Source: Gammaproteobacteria bacterium
GTDB taxonomy: Bacteria > Pseudomonadota > Gammaproteobacteria > Eutrophobiales > Eutrophobiaceae
Assembly: GCA_965116495.1 (NCBI GenBank)
Contig: OZ220696.1
Coordinates: forward strand, 64,001-128,000
DNA length: 64,000 bases
Direction: 5' to 3'
Below are positions 5,434 through 9,830 of the stretch, in pieces. The position numbers were made by a program, and so were the translations under genes. The notes under the pieces are model-generated. The model was given only the letters and a program-made list of their open reading frames with translations, ran no database searches and was not told the origin of the DNA. Numbering within the stretch: the stretch's first letter is position 1; every line of letters begins with the position of its first letter.

Positions 5434-6720
5434 ATGCATGACCTGCAACAACTGGCGTTAATCTGGGCCAGTGTATTTATCGCTTCCTGGCTGGCGGCCA
5501 GGACCAAGCTTACGCCGGTGCTGTACTTCCTCGCCGCGGGTTGCATCCTGGTAAACCTGGGCTGGTTGCCCACCCACGCTACGCCTTTCATCAGCGGGAT
5601 TTCAGAGGTGGGCATTATCCTGATCATGTTCGCCCTGGGGTTTGAAGCAAACCCGGGTCATTTTGTCCAAAGCGCCAAACGCAGCTGGGGGATTGCCCTG
5701 TTCGGCGCGCTGGCCCCGTTTATTGCCGCCTGGTCCTGTGCGCAATATTTCTGGGGGGATGACAAGATCGCCCTGTTGTGCGGCCTGACCATGACTGCGA
5801 CGGCCGTATCACTGACCATGGTCTCATTGAAAAGTGAAGGGCTGCATTTATCCGGCGCAGCCAACGGCATCATGACATCGGCAATAATAGATGATGTAGC
5901 CTCCCTGGTCCTGGTTGCCATTCTGATCCCCATAGCTACGGGGTCAGGGGACCTGTCCGTCACCGGGATAGGGATGATTCTGCTCAGAGCGCTGTTTTTC
6001 TTTGTCCTTATAGTCATTATTGCAGCCTGGATCATGCCCCACAATGCCGAGAGGGGATTGCTGGCCCGCTACCCCGTCCTGCGCCGCTTCGGCATGGTTA
6101 ACCTGCTTTCCATAGATAACGGCAGCAAGGCCACCCTGGGGATTTTACTGGTCGCCATCTCGATCAGCCTGCTTGCTCATCACCTGGGACTGCATCCGGC
6201 CATCGGCGCCTACATGGCGGGCCTGATCATCAAGGAGGAATATTTTCATTTCGGAAAAGGAGAGAACCGGGAAACCCTGTACCAGGACACCCGTAAAATT
6301 GTCGATGATGTTGCTTTCTCATGGATTGGCCCTATCTTTTTCGTTAACCTGGGCACTGAACTCGTGTTTGACGCGGGGATCTTCATTTCCGTCCTTGATG
6401 AGGCCCTGATCGTGCTTGGTAGCGTGTTTTTTGCCCAGGTGATATCAGCCTCTGCCGCGGCGCGTTACACCGGCAGTTTTAACTGGCAGGATTCCGTAAT
6501 GATAGGGTTTGGCATGCTGGGGCGGGCGGAACTGGCGTTCGTAGTCATGAATATCGCATACATACAGCACGGTCTCTTCACCGAGGAAGTATTTTATACT
6601 CTCATGATTACAATTTTCTGGTTAAACGTTGCCGTCCCCGTCACTATCAGGTTCTGGCGCCCATATTATGCGGGGGAAAAACCGCTACCCGCGATCTTGA
6701 GAATCAGGAACTTAGAATGA
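5434..6720 (+). CDS. Cation:proton antiporter (CPA2/NapA-like)
   Basis: Multiple hydrophobic TM segments; TATAVSLT, IIDD and GMLGRAE motifs. Confidence 0.88.
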   Translation: MHDLQQLALIWASVFIASWLAARTKLTPVLYFLAAGCILVNLGWLPTHATPFISGISEVGIILIMFALGFEANPGHFVQSAKRSWGIALFGALAPFIAAWSCAQYFWGDDKIALLCGLTMTATAVSLTMVSLKSEGLHLSGAANGIMTSAIIDDVASLVLVAILIPIATGSGDLSVTGIGMILLRALFFFVLIVIIAAWIMPHNAERGLLARYPVLRRFGMVNLLSIDNGSKATLGILLVAISISLLAHHLGLHPAIGAYMAGLIIKEEYFHFGKGENRETLYQDTRKIVDDVAFSWIGPIFFVNLGTELVFDAGIFISVLDEALIVLGSVFFAQVISASAAARYTGSFNWQDSVMIGFGMLGRAELAFVVMNIAYIQHGLFTEEVFYTLMITIFWLNVAVPVTIRFWRPYYAGEKPLPAILRIRNLE

Positions 6721-6844
6721 TGGACCATGATGCGGCATTATTTATGTCGCTGTGTATAATTCCTAACCTGGCCAAGCCAGAACCAAACAGGATTCTTGAT
6801 CATTTTTCACAGGATTTTACTCGTAAGAGACTAATTCTTAATTG

Positions 6845-7012
6845 AAAGGTTGTTCGGGGAAATGACCTCCTGCCAGAACCCCGAACGGGTCAACCGCGTG
6901 GTGGTTTCGGCTAAGGGAGATGTCCCTCCACCACCACTACCAGTACTCCCTGTACTGATTTAGTCCATCAAGTTGAAATGTTTACGTAACAAGCTCCATC
7001 TTGTGGACAGGC
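6845..7012 (-). ncRNA. Putative CsrA/RsmA-titrating small RNA (CsrB/RsmY/RsmZ-like)
   Basis: The minus strand has consecutive hairpins with GGA in the loops: ACAAG-ATGGAG-CTTGT, TGAT-GGACTAA-ATCA, CAGTAC-AGGGA-GTACTG, GGAG-GGACAT-CTCC, TGGC-AGGAG-GTCA. The last sits inside a long terminal hairpin (6848-6895) followed by TTTC. A matching promoter lies upstream. Ends are inferred. Confidence 0.55.
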
Positions 7013-7018
7013 ATGGAA

Positions 7019-7064
7019 AGTCTACCTGGAAGGGAAGATGTTTGATGTGGGAAAAGTCACATTT
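7019..7064 (-). promoter_or_regulatory. CRP-type box plus -10 hexamer (class II CRP-dependent promoter geometry)
   Basis: TGTGG-GAAAAG-TCACA at 7046-7061 is one mismatch from TGTGA-N6-TCACA and is followed by TTT. The minus-strand -10 TAGACT is at 7024-7019. The box centre is 41.5 bp from a start at about 7012. Confidence 0.6.
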
Positions 7065-7108
7065 TGTTAAAAAAACAATAAAAATGTTACAGGCAGGCTG
7101 CAGGATGA

Positions 7109-7828
7109 CTATTTTTTATAAGTTCCTATCGTATCCTGGATCATGTTTTCAAGTTTTACCACGTCGTTTATTCGCAGCCAGTTTTTCCCTTTATAGATCA
7201 CGCCGGATGATGCGAGCTGCGTCAACTCCCGTGTGATAGCTTCCCGGTGCGTACTGATCCGGCTTGCGAGCTCAATATGCCTGGGCGCCGGTGATATTGT
7301 CGCGGTATTGGAATTATCCATATTCTGCAGGGCTAAACGGAGTAGTTCAGCATGGAGTCTGTTTCTTACGTCCAGGGAACTGAATTCAACCACACGTTCC
7401 GATAATAACCTGATCAGTTGGGCAAAGCGCGCCAGTGTACGGGTCATGATCGAAGGATAAAGCTGCATAAGCCAAAGAAAATTCTGCGCGGACATGGTCG
7501 CGAGAATGGTCTCTGACAAGGTTAAAACATAAGCGGACCGGGATTTGTTGTCCACGGCAGCGATTTCCCCGAACATTTCCCCCGCTACCTGGTCACGAAA
7601 AGAGATTTCCTTTCCTGAAGCGGAATAGATGGCCACTCTTACCTTACCGCTGATGATAAAATGAACATCGCTGTCAATATCGTTATGGGACGTGACGATA
7701 TCTCCCGCAGCAAATTTTTTTCCGTGGCATTTATCGGCAACCACCTTGCGATCGTTAAAGGAAAGGTCATAAAACAATTCTACTGCGGTCAGTGAGCCCG
7801 CCGTTATCTCAATGGATGCGTTTGTCAT
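7109..7828 (-). CDS. Crp/Fnr-family cNMP-binding transcriptional regulator
   Basis: cNMP cassette FGEIA...RSA; C-terminal HTH with recognition helix THREAITR (R-E-x3-R as in CRP). Confidence 0.92.
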   Translation of the reverse strand: MTNASIEITAGSLTAVELFYDLSFNDRKVVADKCHGKKFAAGDIVTSHNDIDSDVHFIISGKVRVAIYSASGKEISFRDQVAGEMFGEIAAVDNKSRSAYVLTLSETILATMSAQNFLWLMQLYPSIMTRTLARFAQLIRLLSERVVEFSSLDVRNRLHAELLRLALQNMDNSNTATISPAPRHIELASRISTHREAITRELTQLASSGVIYKGKNWLRINDVVKLENMIQDTIGTYKK

Positions 7829-7913
7829 TTTTTCACCATATTCAAATTATTCCGTTAATCGTATCTTGCGTCGGGCTGGTTTTTTCCGTCTCCTGTACTG
7901 TCCCCACTATGGT

Positions 7914-9830
7914 TCAATGATTTTTCGGGTTTCCGGCCAGGGAGTAATGATGGTCAAGCAATTCCGGATGAAGTCTGACTTGCTCGGGAAAGTCTTCTTC
8001 CAGTACCCAGATAATCCGCTTGTGCAAATGTTGTCGTACGCGTTTCAATATGCTTTGATACGCCACCTCGCGCATCAATACCCACTTGAACGTGTAACAG
8101 GCGTCTTCCGTATCTCCTGTTTTTACCAGTAACCCGGACCTGCACAGGGTGTTCAATGCATAATCGAGCTTATCCCGGTTTTGTGTCCAGATCTTTGTGA
8201 TCAGGCGATAGCTGAATTCCTGCCCCAGGGCAGCAGCAATCTGTGCCACTTCACGGGAGATTGAGTGCTGGTCGAGTCGCGCCATCAAAACAGCATGCAC
8301 TTTTTTGGGTATTTCTAAATCTGCAGGGACTGGCTGTAAATTCCCGGTTCCGGCCGGCTGTGTCTGTAAAGCTGTCCTGGTTAATTCTTCCAGGAAGAAA
8401 GGGATGCCGTCGCCCCCGGCAATAATCCGGGAGATAAGTTGTGTGGAAATTCGTTTCTCTCCGACTACCTGGCGAATGAACAATTCTGCGGCAGACCGTT
8501 TAAGTGGGCGCAAGGAAATTCTTTCCACATGGTCGTGTTCAAACCATTGTGGCGGCGGTCTGAAATGAATCCGGTGCGATATTGCCAGCAGCACCGGTTT
8601 CCCCCTTATTTTCGGTATCAGCTTGTCGAGCAACCCCAGCGACACCGGATCCATCCAGTGCGCGTCTTCCAGAATAATCAAATGGGGTTTCGCTTCAACC
8701 GGCTTTGCTGCCGGATTTTTTTCCGCAACGGACTCCGTACGGGCTGGCTCGACTGAAGCCTGGATTTGCTCGAGACAAGAGTACAGGTTGTCCTTGTTTT
8801 GTAGCGGTGAGCAGCGGAAAATGAACTGGTCTGATTTTTCCAGGGAGACATATGTGCGCAGTGTCTCCAGCAGGTTTGATTTTCCTATACCCGTCTCACC
8901 GCAGACCAGCACTACCCGGCCATTCCGGTGCCGGGCCAGCTTCCATTGCCCGATGACACGTTTGAATTCCTTGTTTCTGCCTACCAGTCCCGCCGGGTTG
9001 ATTTGCCCGGTGGTATGCAGGCGCTGTTCCATATCGGCGCTATTAACTACCTGCCACAGCATCTGTCGTTTGCTGAATCCTGCTAATGCATGTACCCCGA
9101 TATTCGCCAGCCTGAACCGGTTTTGTATGATATTGCGGGTTTCGGTGCTTACGATTACCGTATCGGGTTGCGCCAGTGTCTGTAATCTTGCGGCCAGGTT
9201 GGGAGCCTCTCCGATTACGGTTTCCTGCGGCTCGGCGCCGGCCCCTATTGGGTTGCCCACCACGACTAGCCCTGATGCAATCCCTATGCGGATGGAAATC
9301 CTGTTCCCGTTCCCGTCCCCCAGTCGGGTTTCCCCGGATTTAATCGAGGCGAGCAAATCCAGGGCCGCGGATACAGCACGCTCCGCATCGTCTTCATGGG
9401 TCTGGGGATAACCGAAATAACTCATAACGCCATCACCCATATTGCACGCGACGAAGCCGTCGTATTTGTTAATTATTGCAATGCAGAGGTTCCTGTAGTT
9501 CTGGATAACCTGTAACAGTTCCTCGGGGTCCAGTCTTGTGGCCAGACCGGTGGAATTAACCAGGTCACAGAACATGATGGTGAGATAGCGGCGTTCAACC
9601 CGGTTGATGGGATCAATATTTTCAACCGGCCCGTCATCGATAATCCGGCTGTAACAGGCATCTTCTTCCCGTATTGTTCCGGGTAACGGGTACCGACAGT
9701 TAGTGCAAAACCGGGATGCCGGTTCCCTGCCCGCATCGCAGCAACCACATTGCAATACCAGTGACGCCCCGAACCAGGAGCAAAAGTATCGCTGTTTAAG
9801 GCTTTCGCGATGGCAAGGAATATATTCCAT
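7914..9830 (-). CDS. Class III adenylate/guanylate cyclase with N-terminal zinc ribbon and AAA/STAND-type ATPase domain (short form, no TPR tail)
   Basis: CxxC...FCxxC; MFCDLVNST, GDG, GEAPNLAARLQ; Walker A GETGIGKS, LEDAHW, GIPFFLEEL. The exact start is uncertain. Confidence 0.88.
   Translation of the reverse strand: MEYIPCHRESLKQRYFCSWFGASLVLQCGCCDAGREPASRFCTNCRYPLPGTIREEDACYSRIIDDGPVENIDPINRVERRYLTIMFCDLVNSTGLATRLDPEELLQVIQNYRNLCIAIINKYDGFVACNMGDGVMSYFGYPQTHEDDAERAVSAALDLLASIKSGETRLGDGNGNRISIRIGIASGLVVVGNPIGAGAEPQETVIGEAPNLAARLQTLAQPDTVIVSTETRNIIQNRFRLANIGVHALAGFSKRQMLWQVVNSADMEQRLHTTGQINPAGLVGRNKEFKRVIGQWKLARHRNGRVVLVCGETGIGKSNLLETLRTYVSLEKSDQFIFRCSPLQNKDNLYSCLEQIQASVEPARTESVAEKNPAAKPVEAKPHLIILEDAHWMDPVSLGLLDKLIPKIRGKPVLLAISHRIHFRPPPQWFEHDHVERISLRPLKRSAAELFIRQVVGEKRISTQLISRIIAGGDGIPFFLEELTRTALQTQPAGTGNLQPVPADLEIPKKVHAVLMARLDQHSISREVAQIAAALGQEFSYRLITKIWTQNRDKLDYALNTLCRSGLLVKTGDTEDACYTFKWVLMREVAYQSILKRVRQHLHKRIIWVLEEDFPEQVRLHPELLDHHYSLAGNPKNH

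Follow-up and report, generated by a model that had tools for sequence, protein, structure and literature searches.

A conserved CRP-type box, two GGA-bearing RNA families and a candidate CRP route to CsrA in a gammaproteobacterial genus

Introduction

Can a nucleotide cyclase gene, a Crp-family gene and the structured RNA that appears to follow them form a regulatory unit that acts on CsrA? The locus in question lies in a 64,000 nt stretch of DNA, here called the window, and a preliminary description regarded it as a self-contained circuit with a Csr/Rsm-type RNA as its output. The genome that contains the window (G000) was compared with 22 relatives of its genus, which gives 23 genus genomes, and with 18 genomes beyond the genus, two of the same family and 16 of other families. 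The genus genomes are kin, and counts across them are therefore non-independent. These uncultured bacteria are probably sponge-associated.

A Crp-family regulator next to a class III cyclase

The gene order first reported was borne out. A class III nucleotide cyclase gene (7914–9830, minus strand; open reading frame 9830–7914), with a PF00211 match and an eroded STAND/AAA_16 region that still matches AAA_16, is followed by a co-directional Crp/Fnr-family gene, crp (7109–7828, minus strand; open reading frame 7828–7109), which has PF00027 and PF13545 matches. The regulator has the CRP-type DNA-contact helix attributed to it, a CAP-like R-E-x-x-x-R helix in which HREAITR aligns to CAP R180/E181/R185, and its cNMP phosphate cassette (G-E...R-S) is intact, as had also been claimed. 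Alignment to CAP chains shows that the pocket residues E72 and R82-S83 are matched and that the T127 position is Leu with S128 retained, i.e. L-S for T-S. The roles of these CAP residues in F-helix contacts and in the cNMP pocket have been described (PMC10187061). With NF008732, the NCBIfam model for true CRP, the protein scores 58.8 bits, below the cut-off of 266; judged by its residues and this score, it lacks the T127-S128 signature and is not an orthologue of enterobacterial CRP.

G000 has one PF00027 match and one PF13545 match over the cut-off, both to this protein, which is the sole cNMP-binding/Crp-family protein predicted in the genome. Orthologues are found in 21 of the 22 relatives and in none of the 18 outside genomes; the phosphate cassette is intact in most of them and reads GD...RSP in G008. 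The module looks genus-limited, because a distant CRP relative (51% identity) has neither an adjacent cyclase nor the RNA discussed below (five loci inspected of seven found).

The box and its promoter geometry

A CRP-type box of the TGTGA-N6-TCACA class, with an A/T-rich centre, is located at 7046–7061, 47 nt beyond the crp stop codon, where it had been reported. The proposed class II geometry also holds: the −10 element TAGACT (7024–7019, minus strand) lies 21 bp past the box, and the box centre is at −41.5 for a start at 7012. This spacing equals 22 bp to the second base of the −10 element, which is a class II feature (PMC10187061). No match to a −35 element was found at this promoter.

In 16 of 20 loci the distance from the crp stop codon to the box is at most 600 nt, and in 14 of these 16 a TAnnnT sequence lies exactly 21 bp behind it. 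All five RNA copies not used in model building, among them those at about 20 kb (G004) and 327 kb (G013) from crp, have a box 32–33 nt upstream of the RNA. The box sequence alone is not rare: with at most one mismatch it occurs 81 times in G000 versus 76–91 expected. A/T-centred boxes number 21 in G000 versus about two expected, and the strict pattern is present in 21 of the 22 relatives (2–24 sites each) versus four of the 18 outside genomes (one or two sites). What rises above chance is the degree of conservation, the constancy of the spacing and the number of A/T-centred boxes.

RNA A and its GGA loops

The RNA, termed RNA A, is about 160 nt in length and is predicted to extend on the minus strand from the start at 7012 to 6852, the end of its last stem. 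The sequence after the promoter had been described as folding into hairpins, and its fold is indeed more stable than 200 of 200 shuffles (z −3.4). RNA A is single-copy; it is present in 20 of the 22 relatives (21 copies with G000) and has no real match in the 18 outside genomes. Weak RNA-model matches, one in G032 and an additional one in G017, are boxless and chance-like, and the G032 match is a simple repeat. A relationship to known families (CsrB, CsrC, RsmX, RsmY, RsmZ and RsmW in Rfam) found no support, the best matches being at chance level.

Five GGA-looped hairpins had been proposed. The consensus instead has four stem domains with two firm GGA loops and a variable one. Compensatory changes are seen in 13 of 39 pairs, and 95% of cells pair; by stem, compensatory pairs number 0 of 13 in P1, 3 of 6 in P2 and 5 of 13 in P4. 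The P2 hairpin (6941–6957) has an A(N)GGA loop at 6951–6947 and the P4 stem (6852–6886) an AGGAN loop at 6871–6867. Both GGAs are retained in 19 of 21 copies, fit the site descriptions CAGGA(U/A/C)G and ANGGAN and are predicted CsrA sites; the variable apical GGA of the P3 stem (6898–6937) is a possible third. The long P1 stem (6963–7008) has the most conserved loop motif (6993–6985), found in 21 of 21 copies, which is not a GGA site. The first GGA of the RNA lies inside the P1 stem and is replaced by ATGAAG/ATGAGG in most relatives, and the second is base-paired within P1. Thus two of the six GGAs of the G000 RNA are unpaired, in the P2 and P4 loops, a number also reached by 20 of 300 shuffles of this RNA. 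A loose genome-wide scan for GGA hairpins gave 597 scan windows with at least four and so is not discriminating.

Both firm GGA loops are lost in G004 and G017, where the box, P1 and csrA are retained. The proposal of a CsrB-type sponge stands in part: RNA A is a GGA RNA predicted to bind CsrA, but of low valency and closer to McaS or RsmU. The five-site claim was overstated because there are only two or three loops, P1 has no GGA site and the firm loops are lost in two of 21 copies. The U-run reported at the end of the RNA was not recovered either, as 6700–7200 has no terminator-like site and the 3′ tail is not conserved.

The conservation of P1 raises the question of whether the main function of a CRP-activated RNA A resides there, in base-pairing with mRNAs, probably with Hfq, or in binding another protein. 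The GGA loops would then be accessory, for stability or for a dual function of the McaS type, and the real decoy would be RNA B, a second family described below. P1 is the most conserved part of the RNA although it has no GGA loop; its loop motif persists even in G004, where every loop GGA is gone, RNA A has only two or three GGA sites, Hfq is present, and McaS is a dual-function precedent (PMC4152358). On the other hand, complements of the P1 seeds are not enriched in the translation-start regions of G000 (1, 1 and 3 among 102, 88 and 84 genomic matches), the comEA leader pairs with it no better than with shuffles (271 of 300 as good), no U-tract follows P4, and in 19 of 21 copies the GGA loops are carried by stems with compensatory changes. 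A main role for P1 is rather unlikely on this evidence.

P1 is also overlapped by a 5-codon micro-ORF (6999–6982, minus strand), and RNA A might act through it by sensing translation or through the peptide. A comparison of start and stop codons in 21 copies shows ATG in 19 and GTG and TTG in one each, with a stop at codon 6 in 15 copies and all three stop codons in use. This regularity is countered by a leader of only 13 nt, a missing ribosome-binding site, a start buried in the stem, changes at first and second codon positions and a frame that continues in six of 21 copies, all of which make such a role highly improbable.

Three RNA runs, chosen because they contain this stretch, give contigs that resolve neither strand nor start. 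In one run a single 151-nt contig at 6868–7012 ends at the predicted start, and the run has no contig over a 19-kb control stretch. This gives weak support to the start near 7012 proposed earlier, but the contig of a second run (6910–7083) spans the RNA A promoter and is read-through from crp or DNA carry-over. The third, X1, has no contig over RNA A, and RNA B1 is uncovered in all three runs; lack of cover is uninformative here. The promoter-crossing contig, together with the lack of a terminator between crp and RNA A, is what would be expected if RNA A were no more than a folded 3′ tail of the crp mRNA or a hairpin repeat that spreads. However, RNA A is single-copy and covarying, and it moves away from crp with its own box and −10 element.

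CsrA and the missing BarA/UvrY

The presence of csrA in the genome, which the preliminary description presupposed, was verified: the gene scores over the NCBIfam cut-off in the lysC-csrA locus of G000, and csrA is found in 21 of the 22 relatives. Across the Gammaproteobacteria, activation of CsrA-antagonist RNAs is ascribed to BarA/UvrY, and FliW is the alternative elsewhere (PMC4682653). UvrY over the cut-off was found in none of the 23 genus genomes and neither of the two same-family genomes, as against five of 16 from other families. Hpt domains are absent from all 23 genus genomes, no uvrY was found upstream of uvrC, and G000 has no FliW. Its sole REC-LuxR protein scores 177.8 versus the UvrY cut-off of 280 and adjoins a UhpB-like kinase.

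The cyclase as a possible input

The cyclase was originally considered the input of the module, and this appears overstated. The metal Asp pair and the transition-state Asn and Arg are kept in 17 of 17 cyclases, and dN/dS of the catalytic domain is 0.11–0.28. The cyclase adjoins crp in all 17 genomes that have it and is the only PF00211 match in G000. However, the substrate-selecting (adenine-selecting) Lys is Cys in G000 and R, Y, G, D, H, S or Q in relatives, the STAND domain is eroded or deleted, and in one clade (G002, G008, G018, G020) the gene is cleanly deleted, with crp, box and RNA retained. The link to the cyclase is weaker because of the lost Lys and this deletion, and the gene content of the clade indicates that the cyclase is not essential to the module. 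Where kept, it probably supplies the cyclic nucleotide.

The decoy model might also be right with the cyclase not being the input, the CRP being active without ligand or sensing a cyclic nucleotide from outside, e.g. host-derived, or another ligand. No CYTH cyclase was found in the 23 genomes and no class I cyclase in G000, which, with the four-genome deletion, the lost Lys, the eroded STAND domain, the G008 cassette and the Leu at T127, fits this proposal; apo-active CRP-like proteins are known (PMC10187061). The constant neighbourhood of cyclase and crp, the conserved catalytic residues under low dN/dS and the intact cassette of most orthologues all argue the other way, and the proposal is considered improbable.

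RNA B, comEA and other box-bearing genes

RNA B is a second GGA RNA family, unrelated to RNA A. It is present in 19 of the 22 relatives in one to nine copies per genome, and each of the 23 genus genomes has RNA A or RNA B. The box with TAnnnT at exactly 40 bp is found in 29 of 31 distinct cores. GGA is kept in 18, 21, 22 and 21 of 22 copies at its four A(N)GGA motifs, with the N of ANGGA varying. Rfam searches with RNA B and with tRNA-like loci showed no family besides tRNA. RNA B has multiplied alongside a Uma2-like nuclease ORF in G006 and G018, which again recalls a spreading repeat, but one copy is fixed upstream of proS in many genomes. Taken with the properties of RNA A, this leaves the mRNA-end or repeat origin of RNA A very doubtful indeed.

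The same box is upstream of comEA, a DNA-uptake gene, in 23 of 23 genomes, with TAnnnT at 40 bp in 18. By hand count, the comEA leader has three GGAs in 19 of 23 genomes and the tandem GGA-N4-GGA also found in RNA B in 17 of 23; among background genes the figure is four of 400. GGA is found in the ribosome-binding site as well. In the three genomes where RNA B is missing, the tandem motif is missing from the leader too, but two of these, G013 and G017, are the most diverged by CRP identity. The 40-bp spacing from box to predicted −10 puts the sites of RNA B and comEA in a class I position, one base short of the lac spacing. TfoX_N is in 11 of 23 genomes and absent from G000, and is therefore not a fixed part of the system.

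The box also precedes tRNA-like RNAs, which ARAGORN did not call, and coiled-coil ORFs; hence a box alone does not imply a CsrA decoy. Nor is the circuit self-contained as first suggested, since the predicted regulon of the CRP, though small, extends across the genome, and RNA A has moved away from crp in some genomes.

A proposed CRP–CsrA circuit

In the mechanism favoured here, the Crp-family protein would bind the conserved box and activate RNA A transcription from a class II site, and RNA A would bind CsrA through two or three GGA loops and pull it off mRNA targets. CRP may thereby have taken over the job that BarA/UvrY has in other Gammaproteobacteria. It would also drive RNA B and comEA, in each case with 40 bp between the site and the −10 element. 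A coherent feed-forward loop would result, whereby CRP makes the comEA mRNA together with the decoys that free this mRNA from CsrA repression.

The comparative evidence gives good support to the predicted link from box to structured GGA RNA to CsrA, and the original interpretation is strengthened because BarA/UvrY was not found and because RNA B and comEA share the box. From these sequence comparisons it is judged reasonably probable that the activation of CsrA decoys has passed from BarA/UvrY to CRP, with comEA probably the target of a feed-forward loop. A more far-reaching proposal is offered tentatively, as possible but somewhat doubtful: a genus-wide exchange of BarA/UvrY for a lineage-specific cyclase–CRP pair that directly transcribes two new, unrelated decoy families, one of which mimics the tandem GGA of comEA, so that a CRP–CsrA loop gates DNA uptake.

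The genus would offer a concrete third solution to CsrA control in lineages without BarA/UvrY or FliW, built from a single CRP with its box, a pair of new RNA families and a putative target. Such decoys are missed by Rfam and UvrY-box searches. The circuit may also connect cyclic nucleotide signalling with CsrA and natural transformation in these uncultured bacteria.

Comparison with known systems

The wiring was first thought to be undescribed. This is correct only in part: CRP activation of CsrA-binding RNAs is known from McaS and from Yersinia CsrC, but a literature search on Csr/Rsm wiring, made mainly in open-access main texts, gave no account of a CRP in place of BarA/UvrY or of comEA under CsrA control. 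Comparable csrA genomes may appear in the supplementary genome table of PMC4682653.

An intrinsic terminator with a U-run is a feature of Csr/Rsm sRNAs, and RNA A has no such U-tail terminator. The Csr/Rsm sRNAs CsrB, CsrC and RsmX/Y/Z are structured, have loop GGAs and occur as redundant copies under one activator (PMC7652899, PMC4682653). RNA A and RNA B resemble these BarA-UvrY/GacS-GacA-dependent RNAs in having loop GGAs, redundancy and a single activator box in a csrA-bearing gammaproteobacterium. They differ in having no Rfam match, two to four sites versus up to 22, and a 16-bp CRP-type promoter box in place of the 18-bp far-upstream UvrY repeat.

Escherichia coli McaS depends on cAMP-CRP for activation and uses a few GGAs to bind and block CsrA (PMC4152358, PMC7652899); activation by a CRP and CsrA binding through few GGAs are predicted here too. 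However, McaS acts mainly by base-pairing, and its cell still has BarA-UvrY and CsrB/C, whereas here CRP appears to be the sole route, with two RNA families, a non-orthologous Crp-family protein and its own class III cyclase. CsrC is Crp-activated in Yersinia pseudotuberculosis and CRP-repressed in E. coli and Salmonella (PMC3523269, PMC7591399), and these are likewise cases of a Csr RNA level under CRP. In them CRP modulates a UvrY-bearing circuit, and the portions of these reports consulted note no direct activating site; in this genus a canonical site is conserved at fixed spacing.

The Xanthomonas RsmU is a genus-limited RsmA-sequestering RNA that has three or four GGAs, belongs to no Rfam family and is released by cleavage from the comEA 3′ UTR (PMC7694677). 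The genus limitation, the lack of an Rfam family and the comEA link are shared. RsmU is processed from an mRNA, whereas separate promoters are predicted for RNA A and RNA B, with comEA as a putative target. Lastly, the Sinorhizobium CyaD1/Clr system, in which class III cyclases signal to a Crp-family activator (PMC10187061, PMC4222275), provides a parallel for the gene pair. Clr differs in its helix (RPKVNR) and in its site; the regulator described here has a CAP-type helix and site, the cyclase is soluble and STAND-fused, and the predicted outputs are mainly non-coding RNAs.

The crp locus and its promoter

The stretch belongs to a genome assembled as a single 4.34-Mb contig that is 99.5% complete (G000). 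It was compared with 22 genomes of the genus, two of the same family and 16 from other families; the compared genomes are kin, and counts among them are non-independent tests. One RNA run that matches the stretch at 99% identity or more carries the label sponge metagenome, and a sponge association is probable only.

The gene order of the preliminary description holds. A cyclase gene (9830–7914) is followed by a Crp-family gene (7828–7109), a near-consensus CRP-type box lies 47 nt beyond the crp stop (7046–7061), and a TAGACT -10 element (7024–7019) lies 21 bp behind the box. This spacing agrees with the class II signature, 22 bp to the second -10 base, in the available part of PMC10187061. The box alone is within chance in G000, where 81 sites have one mismatch or fewer against 76–91 expected. 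An orthologue of the CRP occurs in 21 of 22 relatives and in 0 of 18 outside genomes (E 1e-20). The box is present downstream of crp in 16 of 20 fetched crp loci, and 14 of these 16 have TAnnnT exactly 21 bp behind it. The CRP, which has L-S where CAP has T127-S128, is the only PF00027 match and the only PF13545 match over cut-off in G000. As the sole candidate, and with a suitable recognition helix, it likely binds the box. A distant relative of this CRP (51% identity; L113–L115, L118) is without a cyclase neighbour, and a CRP-like palindrome is conserved some 260 bp ahead of its own gene.

RNA A

The 181 nt downstream of the promoter fold with a z-score of -3.4 and include RNA A, a structured minus-strand RNA of about 160 nt with a predicted start at 7012; no Rfam family matches it. 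It had been described as five hairpins, each with GGA in the loop, ending in a U-run terminator. GGA loops do exist, but there are four stem domains (P1–P4), only two of six GGAs are unpaired in G000 (P2 and P4), and no U-run terminator was found at its end. The P1 stem contains the first two GGAs, of which the first lacks conservation. Two unpaired GGA loops are within chance (20 of 300 shuffles equal this). Since neither these loops nor the box exceeds chance in G000 alone, the case for RNA A is one of conservation.

By a covariance model built from the 16 box-bearing crp loci, 20 of the 22 relatives have RNA A; two further weak matches were discarded. Five copies are new to the model, all with a box 32–33 nt before the RNA. 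The box is still present where a new copy is parted from crp by an insertion, by 20 kb or by 327 kb, thus box and RNA move as a unit. Pairs changed on both sides number 13 of 39, a value reached by 0 of 500 column shuffles, a control that ignores relatedness. On this comparative evidence RNA A is genuine and is conserved as a unit.

In the main rival reading P1 is the working part of RNA A, and CsrA binding is secondary. All 21 copies have the P1 loop motif, and P1 has zero compensatory pairs; the loop GGA is kept at P2 and P4 in 19/21 copies, G004 and G017 having lost both. We regard a P1-based function as unlikely and favour CsrA binding.

Run X3 yields a single 151-nt contig (6868–7012) that ends at the predicted start, and a 19-kb control is free of contigs. 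In run X2 a contig spans the promoter (6910–7083), and run X1 has no contig on RNA A. The X3 contig is a weak hint, as contigs reveal neither strand nor start.

P1 also contains a micro-ORF of five codons (6982–6999, minus strand), with a start codon in 21/21 copies (ATG 19, GTG 1, TTG 1) and a stop at codon 6 in 15/21, all three stop codons being used. The tail beyond RNA A (6720–6840) contains pieces of short repeats that occur elsewhere in the genome; relatives have heptamer arrays at this position.

RNA B and the predicted CRP regulon

The predicted CRP regulon is small. G000 has 21 A/T-centred boxes against about two expected, and on their promoter sides TAnnnT is found ten times at 40 bp and twice at 21 bp. 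The strict box pattern has 2–24 sites in 21/22 relatives and 1–2 sites in 4/18 outside genomes. Three boxes of contig C1 (1887563, 3357718 and 3772757) each precede a copy of RNA B (1887628–1887827, plus; 3357783–3358006, plus; 3772512–3772707, minus; L002–L004), a second, unrelated family of about 200 nt with four A(N)GGA motifs. RNA B is in 19/22 relatives with 1–9 copies each, one copy is fixed upstream of proS in many genomes, and every genus genome has RNA A or RNA B. A box with a -10 at exactly 40 bp accompanies 29 of 31 distinct cores examined. GGA is kept at the four motifs in 18, 21, 22 and 21 of 22 aligned copies and N varies, the same pattern of constant GGA and variable N that the accessible text of PMC7652899 describes for RsmE sites. 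The RNA B fold is less well supported than that of RNA A: the three G000 copies have z-scores of -3.2, -1.5 and -0.05, and 3/21 pairs are compensatory. No curated family includes RNA B.

Further boxes lie in front of tRNA-like RNAs and of short ORFs for coiled-coil proteins, and therefore the box by itself is no decoy marker. The three tRNA-like RNAs (boxes at 3646899, plus; 3651656, minus; 3660564, minus; L005, L006, L039) have a very long variable arm and a terminator-like hairpin before each. One of them scores 51.7 bits against Rfam tRNA; ARAGORN reports no tRNA among the three. Their island has nine boxes within 22 kb, together with short coiled-coil ORFs, RTX-repeat proteins, an integrase and a type I secretion ABC gene. 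A second perfect box with class II spacing (2007493, plus; TACACT) lies before a short ORF region (L007, L121). Extra RNA B copies (L090 and L091 in G018, L092 in G006) are repeated in tandem with a convergent Uma2-like nuclease ORF of 272–300 aa (PF05685) inside polysaccharide clusters, and in one case an insertion sequence lies between the copy and its box.

comEA

The comEA gene (C1 2924514–2924783, minus strand; L120, L122–L145) is preceded by a box in 23/23 genomes, and 18 of these boxes have TAnnnT at 40 bp. Three GGAs occur in the comEA leader of 19 of 23 genomes, compared with at least three in 41 of 400 background genes, scored in a somewhat shorter window. A tandem GGA-N4-GGA, the same as in the RNA B core, occurs in 17 of 23 leaders and in 4/400 background genes. 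G010, G013 and G017, which are without RNA B, have no tandem motif; G003, G005 and G007 have RNA B and are without the motif. G000 also has comEC, which lacks a box. On motif evidence comEA is a predicted joint target of CRP and CsrA.

CsrA and its usual controllers

The proposed CsrA sponge does have a csrA gene in the genome, above cut-off at the lysC locus, and 21/22 relatives have one. UvrY above cut-off is found in 0/23 genus genomes and 0/2 same-family genomes versus 5/16 from other families. UvrY loss may thus predate this CRP, as both same-family genomes are also without an above-cut-off UvrY. No uvrY lies in front of uvrC, and the sole REC-LuxR protein is below the UvrY cut-off and adjoins a UhpB-like kinase. 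BarA requires an Hpt domain, and such domains were found in 0/23 genus genomes; FliW was not found in G000. BarA-UvrY has been proposed as activator throughout Gammaproteobacteria, according to the portion available of a study whose genomes were picked for BarA, UvrY or FliW (PMC4682653).

The cyclase

The cyclase beside crp is the only class III cyclase of G000, which has no class I cyclase; no CYTH protein was found in 23 genomes. It occurs in 17/23 genomes and adjoins crp in all 17. Both metal aspartates, Asn and Arg are kept, and the catalytic domain has a dN/dS of 0.11–0.28 (15 pairs). The adenine-selecting Lys is Cys in G000 and this position varies freely, and the STAND domain is shortened or absent. 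G002, G008, G018 and G020 have the cyclase deleted and retain crp, box and RNA A; in G008 (L020) the cNMP cassette has drifted to GD...RSP. These deletions, the Lys position and the shortened or absent STAND domain make the cyclase the weak link of the module. The core idea of the proposed cyclase-CRP-RNA circuit stands, with fewer GGA sites and a looser tie to the cyclase. Within the cyclase-less clade (L020, L017–L019), G008 and G018 are among the genomes richest in boxes and in RNA B copies.

A proposed CRP-activated decoy system and its precedents

Judging by promoter geometry, CRP is the likely activator of RNA A, RNA B and comEA. Both RNAs likely bind CsrA, and plausibly they titrate enough of it to free comEA translation; whether the cyclase would provide the signal is uncertain. 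We think it fairly probable that a CRP-activated CsrA decoy system replaces the role of BarA/UvrY. This would be a genus-wide rewiring beyond the original idea and is directly testable.

In the literature as far as it was available, no account was found of CRP taking the place of BarA/UvrY, or of a CRP-CsrA loop onto comEA. CRP-activated CsrA-binding RNAs have precedents in McaS (PMC4152358) and Yersinia CsrC (PMC3523269), and CsrC of E. coli and Salmonella is repressed by CRP (PMC7591399), as given in the available parts of these papers. RsmU is a low-valency, genus-limited RsmA binder in the text available (PMC7694677). RNA A and RNA B fall outside the CsrB and RsmX/Y/Z families, given that no curated family includes them and UvrY control was not found, but they probably work like these RNAs.
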